From NCBI GenBank assembly GCA_037443035.1, contig JBBIPC010000001.1:224001-288000 (forward strand): DNA of 64,000 bases. Direction: 5' to 3'. The notes below the pieces were generated by a model. The model saw only the letters and a program-made list of their open reading frames with translations. It was not told where the DNA came from and did no database searches. This document shows, piece by piece, positions 2,182 through 16,186 of the stretch (the stretch's first letter is position 1; every line of letters starts with the position of its first letter). The position numbers were made by a program, and so were the translations under genes. The stretch comes from Chthonomonadales bacterium (GTDB lineage: Bacteria > Armatimonadota > Chthonomonadetes > Chthonomonadales > CAJBBX01).

Positions 2182-2929
2182 ACTGAGACTTCTCTTGGAT
2201 CCGGCAGGGGAGGCGTCGCTCAACATGAGCCGCGACGCCGTGATGCTGGAACGCGCTAGCAGGCCGGCCATTCGCTTCTACGGTTGGTCAGAACCGAGTA
2301 TCTCGCTCGGCAAGCATCAGCAAGTATCCCGCGCGGTACATGCCGCGCGCTGCTGCGAACTCGGTGTGCGCATCGTCCGCCGCCCGACGGGCGGCAAGGC
2401 CGTCCTCCATGGCCATGACCTGACATTCAGTGTCGCACTGCCCCTGTCGCTGCTTCCTCGGGATCGAACCAGTGTTGGGGCGAGCCACTGCCTGATCATG
2501 GGCGCAGTAGCAACTGCTCTGAAACAGCTAGGCGTTACTGTGCGCCACGGTTTCGATGTGCCTTCTGTTCCGTCGCTATCGCCCGCTGATTGCTTTCTGC
2601 ATGTCAGCGAAGCTGACCTTGCGTACGAAGATGGCACGAAAGCAGCGGGTGGTGCCCAGGCGCGCTCGAGATCCGGGTTGCTGCAGCAAGTGTCGATACC
2701 TCTCGGTTCTCCTCGTGTGCCTCCGAACGAGGTCTTCGTCGGCCCAACGGCGCCTATCGGCAACCGGCTATCGGGACTCGACATCGAGGAGCTTCAGAGA
2801 TGCATTGCTGTCCATCTCGCGCGTGCCATCGGTGGTGAGATGGTCGAGGACGCCTGGTCCGACGATGAAGAGGCCGCGGCGCGCGAGCGCGCGGCCATGT
2901 TCGCCGTTGACACAACCGCGGCATTGTGA
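2168..2929 (+). CDS. Lipoate-protein ligase A / LipM-type octanoyltransferase family protein
   Basis: RFYGWSEPSISLG, VRRPTGGKAVLH, KAAGGAQ; follows gcvP. Start taken as ATG 2168, overlapping the gcvPB end. Confidence 0.88.
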   Translation: MPRPELRLLLDPAGEASLNMSRDAVMLERASRPAIRFYGWSEPSISLGKHQQVSRAVHAARCCELGVRIVRRPTGGKAVLHGHDLTFSVALPLSLLPRDRTSVGASHCLIMGAVATALKQLGVTVRHGFDVPSVPSLSPADCFLHVSEADLAYEDGTKAAGGAQARSRSGLLQQVSIPLGSPRVPPNEVFVGPTAPIGNRLSGLDIEELQRCIAVHLARAIGGEMVEDAWSDDEEAAARERAAMFAVDTTAAL

Positions 2930-2935
2930 TATTAT
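2907..2935 (+). promoter_or_regulatory. Sigma70-type promoter for the response regulator gene
   Basis: TTGACA(2907-2912)-N17-TATTAT(2930-2935). Confidence 0.6.
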
Positions 2936-3012
2936 CCTTCTCGATCTCGTGAGAGCTGCCTGTGAAAGGCAGACAAGTGTATGCTCATTCCACGAAAGGG
3001 GTCCACGTCGGC

Positions 3013-3426
3013 ATGGTGAGAAAGAAGAAAATCCTCGCGGTTGACGACGAGAAAGCCATAGTTCGCTTGGTGCAGGTGAATCTCGAGCGAGAGGGCTACG
3101 AGGTCGTCACTGCCTATGATGGACGGGAGGCCCTGGAGAAGGTCGCGAGTGAGCGGCCGGACCTCATCGTTCTCGATGTCATGATGCCGTACATGGACGG
3201 CTTCGAGGTACTTCAACAGCTCAAGAAGGACCCTGAGACCCGCGACATTCCGGTGATCATGCTGACAGCCAAGGCTCAAGACGCCGATGTCTTCCGTGGC
3301 TGGCAGTCCGGCGTGGATTGTTACCTGACGAAGCCCTTCAACCCGATGGAGCTCAAGGCCTTCGTGAAGCGCGTGTTCAAGTCCCTGGAAGACGAGGCCG
3401 AGGGTGAACGGCGTATACAGTTGTAA
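3013..3426 (+). CDS. Stand-alone response regulator (receiver domain only)
   Basis: KKILAVDDE...DLIVLDVMMP.MDG...MLTAK...YLTKPF with no output domain. Confidence 0.93.
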   Translation: MVRKKKILAVDDEKAIVRLVQVNLEREGYEVVTAYDGREALEKVASERPDLIVLDVMMPYMDGFEVLQQLKKDPETRDIPVIMLTAKAQDADVFRGWQSGVDCYLTKPFNPMELKAFVKRVFKSLEDEAEGERRIQL

Positions 3427-4351: not shown

Positions 4352-5632
4352 TCAGTCCACGTCGGCGCTCTTCATGGAGCGCTCCACCACTTTCAAGAAC
4401 TCGGCGTTGCTTTTCGTATGCTTTAGACGATCGATGAGGAGTTCGGTTGCCTCCATGCCCGGAAGACCAGACAGCAGGCGTCGGAGCTGCGTTATCTTGC
4501 GTAGTGTATCCTCGTCATAGAGCAGTTCGTCATGCCTCGTGCCAGAGCGGAGGATGTCCACTGCCGGAAAGATTCGCCGGTCGGCAAGCCCGCGGTCCAG
4601 ATCCAGCTCCATGTTGCCCGTCCCCTTGAACTCCTCGAAGATGTGGTCGTCCATGCGGCTTCCCGTCTCGATGAGAGCCGTCGCCAGTATCGTAAGGCTG
4701 CCGCCGTTCTCAATGTTTCGGGCGGCACCGAAGAACCGCTTCGGACGGTAGAGCGCAGCGGGATCGAGACCACCGGAAAGCGTCCTTCCGCTGGGGTTGA
4801 CCGTGAGGTTCGATGCCCTTGTATATCGTGTCAGGCTATCCATGAGCACGATGACGTCCTTACCGGACTCGACAAGCCTCTTGGCCTGCTCCAACACGAT
4901 CTCGGCAACGCGCATGTGATTCTCGGGGGTCTCATCGAACGTGGAGCTGATGACTTCGCCTTTCACTGAACGTCGAATGTCGGTCACTTCTTCTGGACGC
5001 TCGTCAATGAGTAGTACCAGGAGCACCATCTCGGGATGATTAGCCGCCACGGCGTTGGCCACGGTCTTGAGCAAGGTCGTTTTCCCCGCCTTCGGCGGCG
5101 CCACGATCATCCCACGCTGTCCCTTGCCGATGGGCGCAATAATGTCGATCAGCCGCCCAGCGATCTCGCCTTGCGTGGTTTCCAGGACGATTCGCTCATT
5201 GGGGTAGATAGGAACCAGGTCGTCGAAGCTCGTTCTCCCGCGGGCGACTTCCGGATCGAGGTCATTGACCTGCTCCACGCGCAGAAGGCCGTAGTACTTC
5301 TCAGAGTCCTTGGGAGGGCGCGCCTGACCCGACACCTGGTCGCCCGTGCGCAGGCCGAATCTCTTGATCTGCGTCTGGGACACATAGATGTCGTCGGCTC
5401 GAGGCGTGAAATCGTTTCTCCTCAAGAAACCCCACCCCTCAGGCAGGATCTCGAGCACACCCTTCACGGACATCGCCTGACTGCGATCGCTCGCGTGGTC
5501 GCCTTGCTGGCGAGCTCCGTCGTCACGGTTCTGGCTTTCCGTTGTTACGGCCAGGTCGTCCACGGCGACAGGATCCGGTTGTGGAGGCACGGGAGCATGG
5601 TCGGCCTCCGGCTTGCGATTGCGAGAAGACAT
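4352..5632 (-). CDS. rho: Transcription termination factor Rho
   Basis: [62 protein letters not shown]. Start set at ATG 5632 because the longer ORF overlaps hpt. Confidence 0.96.
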
Positions 5633-5697
5633 AGATGTGCGTGACCTCTGTGAGGCAGATTTCGATGACTGTCCTGCGCCCTGCGCGCGAATGCGTC

Positions 5698-6240
5698 TCA
5701 CGTGTTCACCACCCCGATGTATGGGAGATTGCGGTACAAGCCGCGATCGTCGAGGCCGTACCCTACTACGAACTGATCTTCCACTACGAACCCGCAATAC
5801 TCGACCGGCACTGCGTACCTCCGTCTGGACGGCTTGGACAGCAGCGCACACGTGGCTACGGTCGCGGCTCCGCGCTGCATCAGCAGAGAGCGGATCTCGC
5901 GCAATGTCAATCCCGTATCCACAATGTCTTCGACGATAAGCACGTGCCTGTCTTTCACGGATCGCTCTATGTCCAGCCGGATCTGGACATCTCCGCTCGA
6001 CGTGCGGCACATGCCGTAGGACTTCACAACCATGACATCCACTTCGACAGGCACGGTGATGTGCCGCACCAGATCGCTCACGAACGGCAAGGCGCCCAGC
6101 AATAGCCCCACAACCACCAGATCGCGCCCAGCGTAGTCTCGTGAGATGGCTTCCCCCAGCTCCCCTACCCTTTTCGAGATCGCCTCCGCCGTGATCAGGA
6201 GATCGGGAGTCTGGTTTCGGCCTGCGGTCAGATCGGTCAT
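5698..6240 (-). CDS. hpt: Hypoxanthine phosphoribosyltransferase
   Basis: [22 protein letters not shown]...[12 protein letters not shown] overlap with the guaA stop. Confidence 0.95.
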
Positions 6241-7965: not shown

Positions 7966-8037
7966 GCGGGAATAGCTCAGTGGTAGAGCATCTGCTTCCC
8001 AAGCAGAGGGTCGCGGGTTCGAGTCCCGTTTCCCGCT
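7966..8037 (+). tRNA. tRNA-Gly(CCC), CCA not encoded
   Basis: Cloverleaf: GCGGGAA/TTCCCGC acceptor stem, TCTGC-TTCCCAA-GCAGA anticodon arm, GGTTCGAGTCC T-loop. Confidence 0.97.
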
Positions 8038-8194
8038 CGCTTCAAGGCAGAGAGGACAGATTCTGAGCGTGTTCTGACCTTCTGGGTGCGCCAAGCGGCC
8101 CGTACCGGCGATCGGCATACAAGTAGGGCATGCGCTGGCCACTTGCCTCGTGCCTCTTGCCTATCCGCAACGCCGCTCTCTACCCTCGCTGCTG

Positions 8195-8340
8195 GCTTGT
8201 CGCCCTGGTCCGCTGCCTCGCGGTACCACTCCACCGCTTTCCTCGCGTCCTTCGCTACGCCGATGCCATGCCAATACCAATAGCCCAGGTTGTACTGCGC
8301 CTCGGCATGTCCCTGCTCGGACGCCTTGCGGTACCAGGTG
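8195..8340 (-). pseudogene. Sel1-like repeat protein fragment
   Basis: WYRKASEQGHAEAQYNLGYWYWHGIGVAKDARKAVEWYREAADQG is about 1.5 Sel1 repeats, with no plausible start or flanking domain. Confidence 0.75.
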
Positions 8341-8625
8341 AAGAATCGCCAGCGCATCCACCAGACCCAGCCCGTACCTAAGTTCGAGCGGACCGATCTC
8401 GTCCACCACCAGCAAGTCGCAAGGCCCGGCATCCCGGAGAACGCGGTTCGCCCAGGCAGCCGTGCCGCAGTCGAACCACCAGCGACCGGAACGACCGACG
8501 GGGCGTCCCACGGGAGGCTCCAGATCCGCCAGTGGCCGTCGTTCAATGGATCGTAGGTCCAAGGCGAGAATCTGACGGCGCTCCCCGACAGCAGGCCATG
8601 CGCCGCGCGCCGAAGTCGGCGACAT
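8340..8625 (-). pseudogene. NTPase (THEP1/DUF2478-like) fragment
   Basis: Walker-B-type CDLLVVDEIGPLEL..G.G but no Walker A; breaks off at the Sel1 fragment. Confidence 0.55.
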
Positions 8626-9004
8626 CCTGAATCGTGGTCCGTCTCAGGAACCCGATGAGTTGGCTCTGGTGAGCCTTCCAGAACTCGTGAGTTGGACATG
8701 CCTGATCATCGGAACACAAGGTTCCGCCGAAAAGACAGAGAGGTTGTACGGCTGGATCGTCGAGCGCAACACACACCTCGTAGAGCGACACGTCCCTTGC
8801 AGGACGACGCAAGCGGCTGCCGCCGTGTCTCCCACGCTAAGCTGCAACGAGTCCGCGACGACCCAACACAGCCATGATCTTGCATAGGAACGGAGATGGC
8901 ACTTCGGCGAGAGCTGCAACCTGTCGTACGGGAAGGCTATGTCCAGGCCCGTTCGCCAGTACTGCCAGGGCACGTATCGCATATGTGGATGTCCGGCATA
9001 ACAC
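8543..9004 (-). pseudogene. Rrf2-family transcriptional regulator interrupted by an in-frame TAG (8837-8839)
   Basis: STYAIRAL...LAEVPSPFLCKIM..L.RRGLVAA*RGRHGGSRLRRPARDVSLYEV...CLFGGTLCSDDQACPTH; both halves share one frame. Confidence 0.85.
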
Positions 9005-9207
9005 TGTACGGTGGACTATTCGCGGATATAAAACTCCAGAATGCATTCTGCCTTTGGATCGCCCTCGTGTCAACTTCAGAGGTGTCAGCGCGAGACCTGT
9101 GACGCGATGTCAGTGGTTCGCGGCCCCTGACAAGCGTGTGTTATACTCGCACCTAGGAGCTGGCTGGCGGAGAGTTGCAGGGTCCCCTACCAGCCGAATG
9201 GAGGAGT

Positions 9208-10473
9208 ATGAGCAACGAACGATTTCGTGACAATGTGAGCATCACCACGCTGGAGAACGGTCTGCGCGTGGTGTCGGAGTACGTTCCGAATGTGCAGACC
9301 GTTGCGCTCGGCATCTACGTTCGCGTTGGAGCACGCTTCGAGCGTGCCGATGAGGCCGGCCTCACGCATTTCGTGGAGCACATGCTCTTCAAAGGTACGG
9401 GTCGCCGATCCGCGCGCGACTTGGTTGCAGCGATAGAGTCGAGAGGGGGCAACATCAACGCCTTCACGGAGAAGGAGTACACATGCTACTACGTGCGGGC
9501 ATTGGCAGAGGACGTGCCGCTCGCAACCGATATCTTGGCTGACATGATCCGCGATCCGCGGCTTGCAGAGGAGGACATCAACCTCGAGAAGCAAGTCGTC
9601 CTCGAGGAGATCCGCCGTTCCAGGGATGATCCTGAGGACGCGGTTCACGAACTCCTGGACCGGACGTTCTGGCGCGGGCATCCCCTCAGCAGTCCGGTGC
9701 TCGGTACCCCGAGGACCATCGAGAGGCTTACCCGTGAGCAAATCCAGCGCTTCTTAGCCACCCACTATGAACCGACCAGCATCGTTCTATCGGCAGCGGG
9801 GCGTGTTCGTCATAGGGAACTCGTGCGCCTGGCGCGTCGTTACTTCGGAGACATGGTCCCCAGTGCTCGACGCGAGCGGCAGCGGTCTCCCAACTATCGT
9901 CGCGCCGTGGTTAAGCGTCACCGATCTTACGAACAGGTCCTCTTCTGCATAGGAATGCCGGCATACGCGTACCATGACGTGCGTAAGTATCCGATGACCA
10001 TTCTCGATATGGTACTGGGCGGCACGATGAGTTCGCGCCTATTCCAGGAGGTTCGTGAGAAGAGGGGGCTCGCCTACGACATCGGAACGCATGTGGACGG
10101 ATACCGGGATGGCGGGTTGTTCTCTATCAGTGGCGGGACAAGCCCGGCCACGTTCGGTGCGGTCGTGGATCTTATCCACGAGGAGATACGCAAGGTCGTG
10201 GTCCATGGCCTTACGCCGGATGAGCTCGAAGCGGCAAAGAGGCGTCTCAGGGGCCTCATCGTCTTCAGCCTCGAGAGCATGGTCCAGCGCATGATGGGCA
10301 TCGGTCGTTCTTTGCTGTTCCTCGATCGTGTCATCCCGTTGGCAGAGATCCTGCAGCGCGTCGAGGCAGTCACGAATGATGACATTGTAGCAGTAGCGTC
10401 CGATCTCTTCCAGGAAGATCACGAGGTCATCGTGGCTCTCGGACCATTCGGGATTAACGGAGGTCAGGCATGA
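9208..10473 (+). CDS. M16 (pitrilysin) family zinc peptidase
   Basis: HFVEHMLFKGT (HxxEH), NAFTEKEYT, LGGTMSSRLFQEVREKRGLAY; GGAGG SD. Confidence 0.95.
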   Translation: MSNERFRDNVSITTLENGLRVVSEYVPNVQTVALGIYVRVGARFERADEAGLTHFVEHMLFKGTGRRSARDLVAAIESRGGNINAFTEKEYTCYYVRALAEDVPLATDILADMIRDPRLAEEDINLEKQVVLEEIRRSRDDPEDAVHELLDRTFWRGHPLSSPVLGTPRTIERLTREQIQRFLATHYEPTSIVLSAAGRVRHRELVRLARRYFGDMVPSARRERQRSPNYRRAVVKRHRSYEQVLFCIGMPAYAYHDVRKYPMTILDMVLGGTMSSRLFQEVREKRGLAYDIGTHVDGYRDGGLFSISGGTSPATFGAVVDLIHEEIRKVVVHGLTPDELEAAKRRLRGLIVFSLESMVQRMMGIGRSLLFLDRVIPLAEILQRVEAVTNDDIVAVASDLFQEDHEVIVALGPFGINGGQA

Positions 10474-11261
10474 TCAGTGTCGCCGTAGCCGGCGCTGCCG
10501 GGCGAATGGGTCGTGAAGTGGTCCGCACCCTCCTTCAGCAGGCGGATATGCGACTTGCCGCCGCGTATGACGTCACGGAGCGAGGCTCCGACGCGGCTGT
10601 CCTGGCAGGTGGGACAGCCTGTGGCGTAACCGTGACCGAGCTGACTGGCGCGACCCTGGCGAGCAGTGGTTCGCAGGTCCTGGTGGACTTCACTACGGCA
10701 GAATCAGCGGCTGCGAATGCCCAGCTTGCCCTGTCCCAGAATGTCTCGCCGGTGATAGGTACGACGGGCATGGGCGAAGCGCAGTTGGACAAGCTTGCAT
10801 CTCTGGCCCGGTCAAAGGGCATCGGAGCCATCTACGCGCCCAATTTCTCGATTGGCGCTGTGCTGATGATGCACTTAGCTAAGGTAGCCGCCCGGTTCCT
10901 GGACCGTGCCGAGATAGTCGAGTTGCATCACGACGCGAAGAAGGACGCACCATCAGGTACGGCCAGGCTCACTGCTCAGCGGATCGCCAGCATCTGGCAG
11001 TCATCAGCATCCTCGGCGTCTGGCCCAAGCACCCCGGCCCGTGGCGAAACGGTCGAGGGCGTCCCCATCCACAGCGTTCGACTCCCGGGTCTGATAGCGC
11101 ACCAAGAGGTCATCTTTGGTGCACAAGGTCAGACGCTGACGATCCGACACGACAGCCTGGACCGTGTATCGTTCATGCCGGGCATATTGTTGGCTATCCG
11201 ACGTGTTCGCGACCTTCCTGGCCTCGTCGTCGGTCTCGATACGCTTCTCGGCCTCGAATAG
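10470..11261 (+). CDS. dapB: 4-hydroxy-tetrahydrodipicolinate reductase
   Basis: GAAGRMG, ELHHDAKKDAPSGTA, IRHDSLDR.SF. Confidence 0.96.
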   Translation: MISVAVAGAAGRMGREVVRTLLQQADMRLAAAYDVTERGSDAAVLAGGTACGVTVTELTGATLASSGSQVLVDFTTAESAAANAQLALSQNVSPVIGTTGMGEAQLDKLASLARSKGIGAIYAPNFSIGAVLMMHLAKVAARFLDRAEIVELHHDAKKDAPSGTARLTAQRIASIWQSSASSASGPSTPARGETVEGVPIHSVRLPGLIAHQEVIFGAQGQTLTIRHDSLDRVSFMPGILLAIRRVRDLPGLVVGLDTLLGLE

Positions 11262-11291
11262 CACGCACGACCAGACTGCGCGAGGGGCGTC

Positions 11292-11840
11292 ATGCCCGCT
11301 GAGAACCCTACCACCGACGGCCTCCTGCCTGACATTCTTGCGCCAGGTCTGGATGTCATCTTCGTCGGCGCCGCGCCGAGCCCGGCCGCAGCCATGGCCG
11401 GTCACTACTATGCCGGTTCCCGCAACCGTTTCTGGGATCTACTCTACCGTGCCGGCTTCACACCAAAGCGTCTCGATGCAGAGCAGGACCATGAGGTGCT
11501 CTATTACGGAATCGGATTGACCGCGGTATATGTGGATCGCATTTCCGTCGCGAACCATCTCCTGCCGCCGCCTGATGAGAGCACGCTGGCGGCCCTCCAT
11601 CGGAAGCTCGAGCGTTTCTCCCCTCGAGTGGTGTGTTACAATGGAAAAGATGTGTGCCGTATGTGTACGGGCGAGGAAAACCCGCCCTGGGGAGAGATGC
11701 CGGAATACCTTGGCCGATCCATCCAGTTCGTCGCCCATAGCAGCAGTGGAAGGGCCGATCGTTGGGGTGTGGAACGGCTGGAACTGTACTGCCAGCTGCG
11801 GCAACTCGTGGAGGATCTGCGAACGGCTTCACGCCCCTAA
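11292..11840 (+). CDS. Mismatch-specific uracil/thymine DNA glycosylase (MUG/TDG family)
   Basis: LPDILAPGLDVIFVG...GHYYAG..NRFW..L..AGFT, GIGLT, SSSG. Confidence 0.85.
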   Translation: MPAENPTTDGLLPDILAPGLDVIFVGAAPSPAAAMAGHYYAGSRNRFWDLLYRAGFTPKRLDAEQDHEVLYYGIGLTAVYVDRISVANHLLPPPDESTLAALHRKLERFSPRVVCYNGKDVCRMCTGEENPPWGEMPEYLGRSIQFVAHSSSGRADRWGVERLELYCQLRQLVEDLRTASRP

Positions 11841-11883
11841 CGGAACACATGGGCCGGTGGTATTCCGTATGATCTATCGTAGC

Positions 11884-12198
11884 ATGGGAGCGAGTCTGAG
11901 GGGACCAGCACGGCTGTCCGTCCTGCTTGCGGCGATCTGTACCTTTCTGATCGCTCTAGCAGGCAGTTTCGGACACACGCACCGTTCGGACGGCGGTGCA
12001 ACCTCGTCCGTACGGGCGGAGGGCCATGGCTGTGTGGCGTGTTCCCTCTTGGGCTTCGAAAGGCCGCCGATCGAAGATCGTCCCTCCTCTCAGGGACCAC
12101 TGATTTGGGCAGCGATAGATAGCCCCCTCCGCACCGACGCACCGACCCTCTCGGTCGCGCACCCTCCAACCCTCCGAGGCCCCCCTACCCTTTCGTAA
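11884..12198 (+). CDS. DUF2946-like secreted leader protein with HTH/HxCxxC ligands and a C-terminal RGPP arrest-type motif
   Basis: Signal/TM segment RLSVLLAAICTFLIALAG, then HTH...HGCVAC, a Pro-rich linker and ...LRGPPTLS*. Alternative start ATG 11869. Confidence 0.8.
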   Translation: MGASLRGPARLSVLLAAICTFLIALAGSFGHTHRSDGGATSSVRAEGHGCVACSLLGFERPPIEDRPSSQGPLIWAAIDSPLRTDAPTLSVAHPPTLRGPPTLS

Positions 12199-12300
12199 TG
12201 CAGTCCACCTGGTAGCCGGTTCACCTGGTTCCGGCCCAGCCTGATGGTGGAGCCACGCTAGCTGCACGCTAAGCACTTCGATCTGCTAAACGAAAGGGTA
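12186..12300 (+). promoter_or_regulatory. SD-sequestering RNA structure (translational attenuator)
   Basis: TACCCTTTCGT (12186-12196) is the exact reverse complement of ACGAAAGGGTA (12290-12300), which contains the SD of ATG 12309; inner helices TGCAG/CTGCA, TCCACC/GGTGGA, GCCGG/CCGGC. Confidence 0.75.
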
Positions 12301-12308
12301 CGAAACAC

Positions 12309-13598
12309 ATGTCTGCTTGTCTCCAGCGCATGGCGACTTGCGCCATGCTCCTGCTTGCGACATTCGTTCCAGTCAGAGCGGATGAAGAACAGGGCCTCGA
12401 GAAGGTGGTGGCCGACCTTCGGAAGGTAGTCGCAGAACAACAGAAACTCATCGCCGAGCTCCAAGACCGGGTTAGGCGCTTGGAGAGCACTAGAAATGGC
12501 GAAACCGAGGAGATCCCGATCCCGCCTGTCGAGATACCGGAGCAGACCCCCGCAACGGTCTCGAGACCAGCTCCCTCCAGCTTCATGCCGGACTTCGCCG
12601 TCATCGGCAACCACCGTGGGACATTCCTTGTCCCGAGGGGATATGACGCACGGAATAGGTTCCAGTTAAGCGAGCTGGAGCTCGCCCTACAGCAACCGAT
12701 CTACACCGGGATGAACTTCTATGCCACGATTGCCGGTGGTGCTGATGCCGGATTCGGTATGGCGGTGGAAGAAGGGTATGTGACGCTGTCACGTCCGTTC
12801 AAGCTGCCCGTGGATGCCGTTGTGGGTAAGCGGCGGATGCAGTTCGGCAAGACGAACCAGCTCCACCCGCACCAATGGCGCTTTGTCGATGCCCCAGCAC
12901 CAATCGCGGCGTTTCTCGGCGAAGAAGGTCTGTTCGGCAACGGCGCATCCGTGAATTACACTCTTCCCAGCCGGAATACGTTCGTGAATCTGGAACTGGG
13001 TCTGTGGGGAGCGTCGAGCGCTCATCCCCACGAACACAGCGACACTGCGGACACCCATGCATACGAGCTTGGCGCGGGATTCGCGGGAGACATGCCCGTG
13101 GGGCGCCTATGGGTGTCACGATCCCTCTCGCCCGCGTCGGAGGTCGAGCTCGGAGCTAGTCACGCCCTAGGCAAGGGTGAAAACGGCGATCCCATTCGCC
13201 TAACAGGGCTGGACCTAACCTATCGAGGATTCCCCGGGACTTTCAGCCGGTATCAAGCACAGGGTGAGATCTTCTGGCACGCCCGAAACGACCGTACCGG
13301 TGGCACGGGTACTCACACTCGGTCTGGCCACTTCGCACTTCTAACTTACTCTCCAAACCAGTACTTCGAATATGGCCTGCGGTACGACAACACCCGGTAC
13401 CCCTGGCCCATCGAGGGAAGGGATCAGAGCCTCTCGCTCATCCTCACCAATCGCTTGAGCGAGGCTACGCTCGTACGGCTCCAGTACAAGTTCGGTGACC
13501 GCACCAGCGACGTTTTCTTGCCGGCAAGACGCGGCTACAGCGAGGTCTTCCTCCAGTTCATCTGGGGAGCCGGCTCCCACACACACCCGCTCCAATGA
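12309..13598 (+). CDS. Putative outer-membrane beta-barrel metal-uptake protein
   Basis: Signal peptide, short coiled coil, alternating beta-strand pattern, His motifs (NQLHPH, HPHEH..H, C-terminal GSHTHP); heads a metal ABC operon. Confidence 0.7.
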   Translation: MSACLQRMATCAMLLLATFVPVRADEEQGLEKVVADLRKVVAEQQKLIAELQDRVRRLESTRNGETEEIPIPPVEIPEQTPATVSRPAPSSFMPDFAVIGNHRGTFLVPRGYDARNRFQLSELELALQQPIYTGMNFYATIAGGADAGFGMAVEEGYVTLSRPFKLPVDAVVGKRRMQFGKTNQLHPHQWRFVDAPAPIAAFLGEEGLFGNGASVNYTLPSRNTFVNLELGLWGASSAHPHEHSDTADTHAYELGAGFAGDMPVGRLWVSRSLSPASEVELGASHALGKGENGDPIRLTGLDLTYRGFPGTFSRYQAQGEIFWHARNDRTGGTGTHTRSGHFALLTYSPNQYFEYGLRYDNTRYPWPIEGRDQSLSLILTNRLSEATLVRLQYKFGDRTSDVFLPARRGYSEVFLQFIWGAGSHTHPLQ

Positions 13599-13614
13599 AA
13601 GGAAGTACGAACGG

Positions 13615-14529
13615 ATGAAACACTTGTATCACATCCTTACCCTCGGTGCACTCGCTGTCTTGGGGGCCGCTGCTGCCGCCGCACCGTTAAAGGTTGTTAC
13701 CACGGACACGAATCTGGCTGATATTGCCTCGAAGGTGGGGGGCGACCGTGTTCGAGTGGAGTCTTTGAGTCGCGGCACGGACGACCCGCATCAGGTCGAA
13801 CCGCGTCCTTCTATGGTTGTGAAGCTCGCGTCCGCGGATGTCTTTGCGCGCATCGGCATGGATCTTGACCTTTGGGCCGATGGCATTCTCGAACGATGCG
13901 GCAACCGAAAAGTGCAGAAGGGCGGCCCCGGATATGCCGACTGTTCAGCGAACATCCGCGTGCTGGAAGTCCCAACCACACGGCTCGACCCATCCATGGG
14001 CGACATTCACGTCTATGGCAATCCTCATTATCTGCTCGACCCCGCCAACGGTATCGTAGCTGCCGGTAACATCGCAGCTGCTCTGATACGCGTGGATCCT
14101 GCCGGACAGGCGTACTACCGCAAGCGGTTCCTGGATTTTGGCGAGGCCATGAAACAGCATCTCGAAAAATGGCAGAAGGCCCTCGCAGGATTGAAGGGCC
14201 AGTCCATTGTCGTCTACCACCGCAATTGGATCTACTTCACCAAGCGCTTCGGTCTTGTGGAGTTTAGCGCTATCGAACCTAAGCCTGGGGTGCCGCCGTC
14301 ACCCGGGTACGTACAGGGCCTGATCCGATTGATGAAGGCGCATACCGTCAGGATCGTCCTTTGCGAGACCTTCCGGAGCCACCAATATCCTGACATGATC
14401 GCCGCCCAGACAGGTGCTCGCGCTGTGTTCGTCCCACTTGCGGTCGGCGGCGAGGCAGCAGCAACGGACTACTTCGCACTGTTCGACGTCATCACGTCGA
14501 GACTCGCATCTGGCGCCAGGCAGCCGTGA
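13615..14529 (+). CDS. Zn/Mn-type metal ABC transporter substrate-binding protein (ZnuA/TroA family)
   Basis: DPHQVEPRPS, DIHVYGNPHYLLDP, YHRNW, EPKPGVPP; signal peptide. Confidence 0.92.
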   Translation: MKHLYHILTLGALAVLGAAAAAAPLKVVTTDTNLADIASKVGGDRVRVESLSRGTDDPHQVEPRPSMVVKLASADVFARIGMDLDLWADGILERCGNRKVQKGGPGYADCSANIRVLEVPTTRLDPSMGDIHVYGNPHYLLDPANGIVAAGNIAAALIRVDPAGQAYYRKRFLDFGEAMKQHLEKWQKALAGLKGQSIVVYHRNWIYFTKRFGLVEFSAIEPKPGVPPSPGYVQGLIRLMKAHTVRIVLCETFRSHQYPDMIAAQTGARAVFVPLAVGGEAAATDYFALFDVITSRLASGARQP

Positions 14530-15290
14530 ACGCACTGATTTCCTTCGAGCACGCTCGTCTTGGATATCGCGAGCCCGTACTGGACGATGTCTGTCTGGAT
14601 GTGTTTCCGGGAGACTACCTCGGCATCGTTGGACCGAACGGCGCTGGCAAGACGACACTCTTGAGAGCCATCCTGGGACTGATCCGGCCACTGGCCGGGT
14701 CAGTCCGAAGCCCGGGTCCGGAACACCGCATTGGTTACGTGCCCCAGCGAGACACGCTCGACTCTCTCTTTCCTCTTAGTGTGCTCGACATTGTGCTCAT
14801 GGGCCTCTATCACACTTTGGGTCCAGTCCGTCGCCCAGGACCCAAGGAGCGCCGTTCAGCCATGGATGTTCTCGAGGATCTCGGTATAGGCGATCTGGCC
14901 AGTCGGAGCTACCGGAGCCTCTCTGGGGGCCAGAAACAGCGATGCATCATTGCCAGAGCGTTGATATCGAAGCCGGAGGTCCTCGTACTCGATGAGCCTA
15001 CGAATGGGATGGACTTGCCGGCCGAGCATGGCATCGTGAGTCTCATAGACCACCTCCACGCAGAGCACTCGCTGACTGTCCTCTTCGTCAGTCACATGCT
15101 GCATGTGGTTCTGAACCACGCCAGTCGCCTGGCCATCGTCGGGGACGGCAGGGTTGTTACGCTGGATGCAAGCACGGATTCGCTAGGGGATCAGTTGGCG
15201 GCCGTCTACGGAATGCCTGTGGACGTGCATGATGTACGGGGCAGCGTCGTCGTGCTGGCTCGGCAACAGCCGGATGGGGGTTCGACATGA
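14526..15290 (+). CDS. Metal ABC transporter ATP-binding protein (ZnuC-like)
   Basis: GPNGAGKTT, IGYVPQR, LSGGQKQR, LDEPT. Confidence 0.93.
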   Translation: MNALISFEHARLGYREPVLDDVCLDVFPGDYLGIVGPNGAGKTTLLRAILGLIRPLAGSVRSPGPEHRIGYVPQRDTLDSLFPLSVLDIVLMGLYHTLGPVRRPGPKERRSAMDVLEDLGIGDLASRSYRSLSGGQKQRCIIARALISKPEVLVLDEPTNGMDLPAEHGIVSLIDHLHAEHSLTVLFVSHMLHVVLNHASRLAIVGDGRVVTLDASTDSLGDQLAAVYGMPVDVHDVRGSVVVLARQQPDGGST

Positions 15291-16186
15291 GTTGGCAGGA
15301 TGTCTGGGCAGGTCTGCATCTGAACTCGACGGGCGTGATGGCCGCGGTGCTAGTGGGGTTGGTGTGCGCGTATCTCGGCGTCTTCGTGGTCCTGAAGCGC
15401 GTTGTGTTCGTCGGTCTGACGCTCGCGCAACTGTCTGGAGCGGGCATCGGGCTTGCCTTTCTGCTCGGGCCTGTTCTGGGAGCCCTTGGTCATCGCTATG
15501 CCCACTCGGTCTGGCCCGTGGGCCAAGTGGGTACTAGCCTCGAGTGGATTGCGGCAAGACCTCTATGCATCTCGCTCGTGGTCACACTGCTGGGGATCTG
15601 GCTTCTTGCCAGGCACTCCTGGTCTCACGTGGTCCCACGCGACAGTATCGTCGGAGCTGCTTACGTGGCGGCGTATGGCATGACCCTGCTGTTCATCCTT
15701 CGTAGCCCCAAAGGCATGGAAGACGTGCGGGAATTGCTCGATGGCAGCGTCATTGCGACGTCTCCGGCAGATCTGATGATGCTAGCCTTGGTCCTCGGCA
15801 CGGTGCTCGTTATTCATGCGTTGTTCTACAAGCAGCATCTGTTTGTCGCCTTCGACCCGGAGGCTGCAGCCGCCCAGTCGTACCATGTCGCGGGATGGGA
15901 AGCCCTGTTCTATGTGACGCTAGGAGTCGCCATAACAGTCGCCATGCGCCAGGCAGGGATCCTGCTCGTATTCGCTTATCTGGTGGTCCCACCCATCGTG
16001 GGACTGGTCGCTGCCAGACGTATGGGCAGTGTGCTCGGCATTGCGCTTCTGAGCGCAGGTCTCTCGGCTATCCTTGGCTTCGTCTTAGCGCTGAAATGGG
16101 ATCTCCCGCTGAGCCCACCGACAATCGGCGTGGGCCTCGGCCTGTTAGCGGTAGCTGCCCTGGCGAGACGTCGCTCGCCTGCGTGA
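15287..16186 (+). CDS. Metal ABC transporter permease (ZnuB/ABC-3 family)
   Basis: GVFVVLKRVVF, FDPEAA, G.LLVFAYLVVP; multiple TM segments. Confidence 0.9.
   Translation: MSWQDVWAGLHLNSTGVMAAVLVGLVCAYLGVFVVLKRVVFVGLTLAQLSGAGIGLAFLLGPVLGALGHRYAHSVWPVGQVGTSLEWIAARPLCISLVVTLLGIWLLARHSWSHVVPRDSIVGAAYVAAYGMTLLFILRSPKGMEDVRELLDGSVIATSPADLMMLALVLGTVLVIHALFYKQHLFVAFDPEAAAAQSYHVAGWEALFYVTLGVAITVAMRQAGILLVFAYLVVPPIVGLVAARRMGSVLGIALLSAGLSAILGFVLALKWDLPLSPPTIGVGLGLLAVAALARRRSPA

Follow-up and report, generated by a model that had tools for sequence, protein, structure and literature searches.

The last codons of a short leader open reading frame are complementary to the next gene's Shine–Dalgarno (SD) sequence, that gene encoding a predicted porin-like barrel ahead of a metal importer, in the 64,000-nucleotide stretch of DNA analyzed here (the window) from a Chthonomonadales bacterium. 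The finding is real and, on comparison with other genomes, well supported; the sequences of the two arms differ between genomes yet track the SD of their own locus. The preferred reading, with a probability of about 70%, is a CutF-like anti-SD switch that is run by a CruR/DUF2946-like arrest peptide and is likely ON when metal is scarce. The features of the locus, all on the plus strand, are as follows.

11884..12198, plus: leader ORF, 104 aa from ATG 11884 (109 aa from ATG 11869; start uncertain)
12031..12042, plus: CxxC motif (CVAC), with the Arg of RGPP 44 residues farther on, from alignments
12115..12195, plus: region rich in C (42) and poor in G (14), a candidate Rho loading site, from base skew
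12175..12186, plus: RGPP codons, predicted arrest site with P site at 12181–12183, register from PMC10987492 and PMC10951233
12186..12196, plus: 5′ arm (anti-SD), spanning +6 to +16 relative to the predicted P-site codon
12199..12289, plus: structured spacer joining the arms, from folding; unalignable between genomes, no Rfam family
12290..12300, plus: 3′ arm including the SD GAAAGGG (12292–12298), from complementarity and 16S tail pairing
12309..13598, plus: predicted outer-membrane beta-barrel, porin-like, 429 aa, no curated family, from predicted structure
13615..14529, plus: ZnuA-family metal-binding protein, His/His/His/Glu at ligand positions, from family match and alignment
14526..15290, plus: ABC ATPase, closest to AztA in NCBIfam (score below cut-off)
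15287..16186, plus: ABC-3 metal permease (ZnuB/AztB-like), from family match

Leader Peptide and Its Surroundings

The leader has a hydrophobic, signal-like N-terminus (judged by eye from the hydrophobic stretch), followed by His31, C50-x-x-C53, R98-G-P-P, and Thr-Leu-Ser-stop. The His, both Cys, the Arg, and both Pro residues are invariant in all 26 aligned leaders. The spacing from CxxC to RxPP is 43–45 residues in 17/17 family loci and 41–46 residues in 35 of 36 further clusters, and the CxxC motif is likely a metal or redox sensor. In size and shape the leader agrees with the DUF2946/CruR–CutF type: its length is 104–109 aa (the type is shorter than 150), its Pro-Pro pair lies 3 residues from the end (at most 15), and the CxxC/RAPP-like spacing, about 45 residues in the type, is 44 in the window and 45 in CruR. 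The leader is the apparent first gene of a metal-homeostasis operon, with the porin-like gene, ZnuA, the ATPase, and the ABC-3 permease downstream.

Pfam PF11162 (DUF2946) did not match the leader of the window at E ≤ 0.1 or E ≤ 5, and the leader locus was not returned when this genome was searched with PF11162. Weak matches at E ≤ 5 were obtained for the leaders of 12 of 26 relatives (best, 0.0019), and one Atlas feature match (0.95, rank 18) belongs to a cluster that is 70% DUF2946. By its sequence the leader is DUF2946-like and stands outside formal DUF2946 membership. A profile built from the 26 leaders identified no other convincing copy in this genome; the runner-up had an E value of 0.037 and contained stops. 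The 222-aa ORF from ATG 11530 was rejected because it is the same frame run through the preceding uracil-DNA glycosylase (UDG) gene; relatives back only its last ~100 residues.

The UDG family gene (11292–11840, plus strand) ends 28–43 nt before the leader, and a UDG gene also precedes the leader in several close relatives (L023, L024, L040, and L041). A scan of 11200–12500 returned 0 sigma-70-like promoter sites and one minus-strand terminator-like site, which is at chance level. Since no promoter was found between them, the UDG gene and the leader may share a transcript. When the leader starts of 53 loci were examined, a TATAAT-like hexamer was located 5–8 nt before the candidate leader ATG in 11 of the 42 loci with an ATG versus 6/126 at control spacings; the window itself fails this test. 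Many leaders may be carried on leaderless mRNAs. Farther upstream (7977–8812, minus strand), two fragments, one Sel1-repeat and one Rrf2 C-terminal, lie amid tRNA-like sequence and have the look of broken genes.

Variants of the leader were observed. The leaders of L035–L037 (Scalindua) are longer, with extra Cys and a His-rich insert before the CxxC motif, and have the same operon downstream. The leader at L062:196-470 has an intact His/CxxC segment and ends in RSPT-VF instead of RSPP; it is a probable arrest-weak natural variant.

Complementary Arms and Ribosome Binding Site

An earlier note on this DNA had described an exact 11-nt reverse complement that begins in the last Pro codon of the leader, runs into the stop codon, and pairs with a segment holding the SD 8 nt before ATG 12309. 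Each of these particulars was reproduced. The 5′ arm TACCCTTTCGT (12186–12196) is complementary to the 3′ arm ACGAAAGGGTA (12290–12300) at 11/11 bases, with no Watson–Crick extension at either end. The 5′ arm opens on the last base of the second Pro codon (12184–12186), spans Thr-Leu-Ser, and closes on the T of TAA (12196–12198). Eight bases lie between 12300 and ATG 12309. The SD core GAAAGGG (12292–12298) forms 7 bp with the 16S tail of the same genome, for a pairing energy of −8.7 kcal/mol; this tail was read from contig C20, and the mature 16S end was inferred from the DNA. The alternative porin starts ATG 12330 and ATG 12345 were rejected since they have no SD (−0.9 and −3.3 kcal/mol, respectively, against the 16S tail). 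The ribosome binding site (RBS) of the ZnuA-like gene (13590–13617) resembles that of the porin gene, with GAAAGG...TACGAA...ATG in both.

The rarity of the match was determined across the genome by allowing the complement to lie anywhere 40–300 nt upstream of each SD-bearing long-ORF start. A perfect complement of at least 11 bases to the RBS window is found at 1 of 1,743 such starts, and one of at least 8 bases at 79/1,743. The single start with at least 11 bases is probably the present locus, which falls within the inclusion rule. Of the 1,728 synonymous codings of PTLS-stop, 0.35% pair equally well. The complement had been offered as independent support for the leader model. That support is only partly independent because C-rich Pro codons favor pairing with any G-rich SD, which is why swap controls were run.

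The window and locus L002 have an identical P-T-L-S-stop peptide tail, and their Leu and Ser wobble bases differ over +11 to +16. The respective partners, ACGAAA and AGGAGA, differ at two positions that match the Leu/Ser wobble changes. We infer that the partner bases of the two loci are homologous, though their distances from the start codon differ.

Predicted Fold and Modeled Ribosome

The predicted fold keeps the SD paired, as had been proposed. The pair probabilities of the 11-bp stem are 0.86–1.0 in five contexts of 151–561 nt and 0.67–1.0 in a sixth context in which the folded piece ends at the arms. The stability of the region varies with the chosen boundaries, with z = −1.37 for 12170–12320 and z = −3.95 for 12181–12306. 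The three inner helices suggested in the earlier note (12199–12203/12262–12266, 12204–12209/12246–12251, and 12215–12219/12231–12235) are indeed complementary but are minor in the predicted ensemble, with probabilities of 0.00, 0.14–0.16, and 0.17. The favored inner closure is 12200–12203/12283–12286, with a probability of 0.98–1.0. The Rfam scan of 11200–12500 gave 3 matches with E values of 1.1–2.5, all far under the gathering score and none in the stem.

A stalled ribosome covers 11–15 nt downstream, and the 5′ arm, which runs from +6 to +16 relative to the P-site codon 12181–12183, falls inside this cover. When such a ribosome was placed at RGPP in the model, the cost of opening the SD fell from 14.4 to 6.0, 4.8, and 4.2 kcal/mol for assumed downstream reaches of 11, 13, and 15 nt, respectively; the SD would still be partly paired, with an unpaired probability of 0.07–0.42. 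The cost is still 12.7–14.4 kcal/mol for a ribosome whose P site has advanced no further than Leu 12172. As the modeled footprint slides forward, the cost is 4.2–6.0 kcal/mol at Pro 12181 and remains low through to the stop codon. The modeled ribosome would thus begin to free the SD only on reaching RGPP. The earlier proposal that a stall frees the SD is compatible with this modeled geometry and with the homologues described below. Given the low modeled cost up to the stop codon, termination at TAA would likewise be expected to open the stem for a short time, whereas a lasting arrest would hold it open.

The arrest itself is predicted from published peptides. In RAPP-type peptides, the third residue of the motif occupies the P site at the stall (PMC10987492, PMC10951233), and when other peptides were tested, the arrest was most robust with RGPP (PMC12992588).

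Pairing in Family Homologues

The porin-like gene was found in 18/61 genomes searched: the present one, 16 of 23 others of the family, and one weak match outside it (L018 in G035), which was left out of the counts. Loci L015, L016, L017, and L019 were also left out as second windows on genomes already counted. The leader is located before the porin-like gene in 17/17 family genomes. The closest named relatives are Chthonomonadales. The family intergenic regions are 68–266 nt long, and the alignment made for covariation gave unalignable spacers with 35% column identity. Because these regions cannot be aligned, the pairing was tested by swapping, in which the tail of each leader was matched against its own RBS and those of all other loci, with 100,000 permutations for comparison.

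Own pairs in the family gave −14.7 kcal/mol versus −10.5 ± 0.7 kcal/mol for permuted pairs, with 0/100,000 permutations as good, for start codons chosen by eye after the folds had been seen, a test window set with knowledge of the finding, and related loci that are not independent of one another. With one locus per genus (n = 12), the values are −15.0 and −10.3 ± 0.8 kcal/mol, again with 0/100,000 permutations. The own-pair advantage is concentrated at three offsets counted from the Arg codon, +6 (−2.6), +12 (−4.3), and +18 (−2.1), and lies between −1.0 and +0.9 at the remaining 17 offsets. These own-versus-swapped tests favor selection on the pairing.

In 15 of the 17 family loci, the predicted arm begins between +2 and +14 relative to the P-site codon. 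L008 has no stem, L011 has 2 pairs, and in L007, L020, and L022 the arm lies largely or entirely at or past the leader stop codon. A modeled ribosome at RxPP (reach 13) lowers the SD opening cost by at least 2 kcal/mol in 14/17 family loci, and a control ribosome ten codons earlier does so in 0/17. Upon synonymous recoding, 6/17 loci are in the best 5% and 14/17 in the best 21%; two are uninformative. The stretch from the stall site to the start codon has z below −2 against shuffles in 15/17 family loci.

Pairing in Further Loci

A second set of 78 loci not already counted was collected from public genomes and metagenomes, and the leader was identified by its pattern in 68 of them. The upstream DNA is too short in five of the 10 loci without a leader by pattern (L038, L042, L085, L091, and L094); of the other five, L046 matches only the C-terminus of the porin and L062 has the leader ending in RSPT. 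No leader was seen upstream of the porin relatives at L048, L050, and L068, which are natural controls for regulation of the operon without a leader. For the pairing tests, 67 loci were reduced to 36 clusters; L047 was left out for its uncertain start, and L023–L034 were left out because they come from the same genomes as family loci. The starts in these clusters were called blind to the pairing, by SD strength and hydrophobicity alone.

Own pairs in the 36 clusters gave −12.5 kcal/mol versus −9.6 ± 0.4 kcal/mol for permuted pairs, a difference to which base composition adds a background advantage. The advantage of −2.9 kcal/mol compares with −0.75 in control windows and is present in 27/36 clusters (Wilcoxon p = 0.001); when two Chthonomonadales-like clusters are removed, it is present in 25/34 (p = 0.003). 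The modeled stalled ribosome cuts the opening cost by at least 2 kcal/mol in 20/36 clusters versus 4/36 at the control position, and there is no marked gain of accessibility in 16/36. In 7 clusters the own SD ranks 23–33 of 36, that is, with no own-pair advantage. The predicted pairing signal is weaker in these more distant clusters and is not universal. RNAalifold gave an invariant 5-bp helix between Pro codon and SD, with no two-sided change, for an alignable subgroup of 9 and no consensus structure for an AT-rich subgroup of 13. Several loci, most of them AT-rich (L054, L055, L057, L073, and L102), have a predicted arm that starts just after the leader stop codon (+16/+17) and has the start codon as its partner instead of the SD; RSPP is used by several of this group.

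Downstream Porin-Like Gene and Metal Importer

The porin-like protein is predicted to be a beta-barrel with a mean pLDDT of 66.9, and porins are the structures that it matches best (E 2.6e-10, TM ~0.48). The importer genes downstream match PF01297 and PF00950 above cut-off. The ZnuA-family protein has His, His, His, and Glu at what we take to be the ligand positions. The third His aligns with a His of a solved zinc-uptake protein (2ov1) and with a Glu of YfeA. Among 48 loci examined, this site is whole in 32 of the 38 relatives with a match, and the other 6 alignments are shorter but agree. The three-His plus acidic site in a ZnuA-family protein, together with an ATPase and an ABC-3 permease, corresponds to the ZnuABC type. 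No NCBIfam equivalog reaches cut-off for the importer genes, and the importer substrate therefore remains a prediction.

The ZnuA-like gene follows the porin in 65/90 loci, and most of the misses are short contigs. No porin relative was found in a plasmid collection, no zinc-regulon marker was found among 39 neighbor ORFs chosen from 20 loci, and the available part of PMC545781 contains no link between this porin and Zur. At L049, NikR (2763–3218) is encoded before the leader and FeoB (8322–9320) after the ABC genes. Nickel or cobalt are thus also candidate metals, and this locus may hint at different metals in different lineages. This genome has one Fur-family gene and a further ABC operon of the ZnuA family, featuring a His-rich loop (G000:C6:181342-182154, minus strand), at which no CxxC–RxPP leader was found.

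Alternative Explanations

It is very improbable that the complement is a functionless by-product of C/U-rich Pro, Ser, and Leu codons facing a G/A-rich SD. Swapped pairs still reach about −10 kcal/mol and some further clusters have no own-pair advantage, but such a match at 1/1,743 starts and in 0.35% of synonymous codings, and an own-pair advantage limited to the stall footprint, argue for function. An unlikely reading takes CruR-like, Rho-dependent termination as the main output: the stalled ribosome would shield the C-rich Rho loading site, and the SD stem would be secondary, keeping the downstream RNA untranslated for Rho. The C/G skew of 12115–12195 is matched by 8/92,822 genome windows, C exceeds G at the leader end in 17/17 family loci, and a rho gene (Rho_RNA_bind; 4352–6010, minus strand) is located in the window ~6 kb upstream of the leader. 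The 68–266-nt intergenic regions also resemble that of cruR–bfrG (162 bp), and CruR, the closest importer-linked precedent, works through Rho termination (PMC9426467). The C excess is, however, barely above that imposed by the amino acids of the peptide (p = 0.043), and control by Rho alone would leave unexplained why the arms track their own SD. A Rho layer and the SD stem can coexist, and a second Rho layer is plausible.

Leader ribosomes could also open the stem in response to an input other than metal, namely export force or disulfide status (SecM-like), or through translational coupling with a constitutive pause; we regard this as distinctly unlikely. It would be consistent with the signal-like N-terminus, with the opening of the SD by a modeled ribosome anywhere from Gly/Pro to the stop codon, and with the disulfides proposed for the CutF cysteines (bioRxiv 2025.02.05.636593). 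A ligand sensor accounts better for the invariant His and CxxC, 41–46 residues from RxPP, and for the ZnuA-like gene after the porin in 65/90 loci, and RGPP is strongly avoided in proteomes unless it serves arrest (PMC12992588).

Proposed Mechanism

The anti-SD switch would operate in four steps. In ribosome-free RNA, the 11-bp stem is predicted to close a structured spacer of ~93 nt and hide the SD, a step that is backed by sequence, modeled folding, and homologues. A ribosome would then arrest with Arg-Gly-Pro in the P site, as judged by analogy with published RAPP/RGPP peptides, and would keep +1 to ~+13 single-stranded, so that most of the stem is removed. In computational terms the anti-SD arm lies within reach of the predicted stalled ribosome and pairs with the downstream SD, as in the CutF/SecM type. 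The His/CxxC segment, whose fixed distance would bring it just outside the exit tunnel, would sense the signal and presumably control the arrest. As the genes under control serve metal uptake, the most likely effect of metal binding is to release the arrest, in keeping with CruR; the stem would re-form and uptake would be turned off, which would combine CruR-like sensing with a CutF-like output. In the last and weakest step the metal would be zinc, and Rho may then trim the untranslated message. That the leader–porin–ZnuABC module as a whole is a zinc-sensing nascent-peptide switch, in which zinc on His/CxxC releases the RxPP arrest and the anti-SD stem stops import, is put forward tentatively.

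Relation to Known Systems and Significance

In the CutF–cutO system of Rhodobacter capsulatus, an anti-SD stem-loop shields the SD of cutO, and mutation of the anti-SD raises the output (bioRxiv 10.1101/2022.11.11.516240 = PMC9973294; bioRxiv 10.1101/2025.02.05.636593). CutF (DUF2946) resembles the present leader as a small exported protein with a Cys motif, a C-terminal proline-rich stall motif, and an anti-SD stem-loop over the SD of the next gene, which stalling is proposed to unfold. It differs in its CxxxC and PPP motifs, its EF-P sensitivity, and its stalling with copper to drive a detoxifying oxidase, whereas CxxC and RGPP, an importer target, and a stem closing a long multibranch spacer are found here. 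The polarity is probably reversed relative to CutF because the target here is an importer.

The CruR (Bp2923)–bfrG system of Bordetella pertussis (DUF2946; PMC9426467) has CxxC and RAPP 45 residues apart, compared with 44 here and 41–46 in the relatives, and shares the long intergenic region, the C > G stretch, and an outer-membrane importer downstream. The ligand is proposed to release the arrest of CruR (PMC9426467). The output shown for CruR is Rho-dependent termination, with copper as the ligand and a TonB-dependent transporter as the target (PMC9426467), whereas the target here is a porin-like barrel with a ZnuABC-like importer; the available text of that paper contains no SD-sequestering stem for CruR. 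The RxPP arrest core is shared with SecM, MifM, and the RQH-family arrest peptides, and disruption of an SD-masking stem-loop by a stalled ribosome has been shown for uDF_RQH before secDF2 (PMC10987492, PMC10951233, PMC12992588). Unlike the present leader, those peptides monitor protein export, regulate secA, secDF, or yidC, and have no metal-ligand motifs.

The literature search found no publication describing a leader of this kind ahead of a porin–ZnuABC operon, though the supplements of PMC12992588 and PMC9973294 may list it; the term ZnuA is absent from the main texts of the CutF preprint and PMC12992588. The regulatory principle itself is not new, and the locus would represent a known mechanism that is turned on a probably new target and combines sensing logic and output in a new way. 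The DUF2946-type leaders published so far sense copper and act in two ways: an importer is controlled by Rho termination (CruR) and a detoxifier by SD unmasking (CutF). The module described here appears to join the importer logic with SD unmasking ahead of a zinc-type transporter, and its carriers include Chthonomonadales, Scalindua, and many lineages that are uncultured. How RAPP/RGPP arrest regulates such downstream genes, if it does, is posed as a question in PMC12992588, and since the cis-element is defined to the nucleotide and supported by natural variation, this question can be addressed with a few synonymous mutations. If the zinc-sensing proposal is true, the module would be a post-transcriptional zinc sensor that needs no Zur, and each lineage would re-tune the anti-SD by its use of synonymous codons and of particular tail residues.
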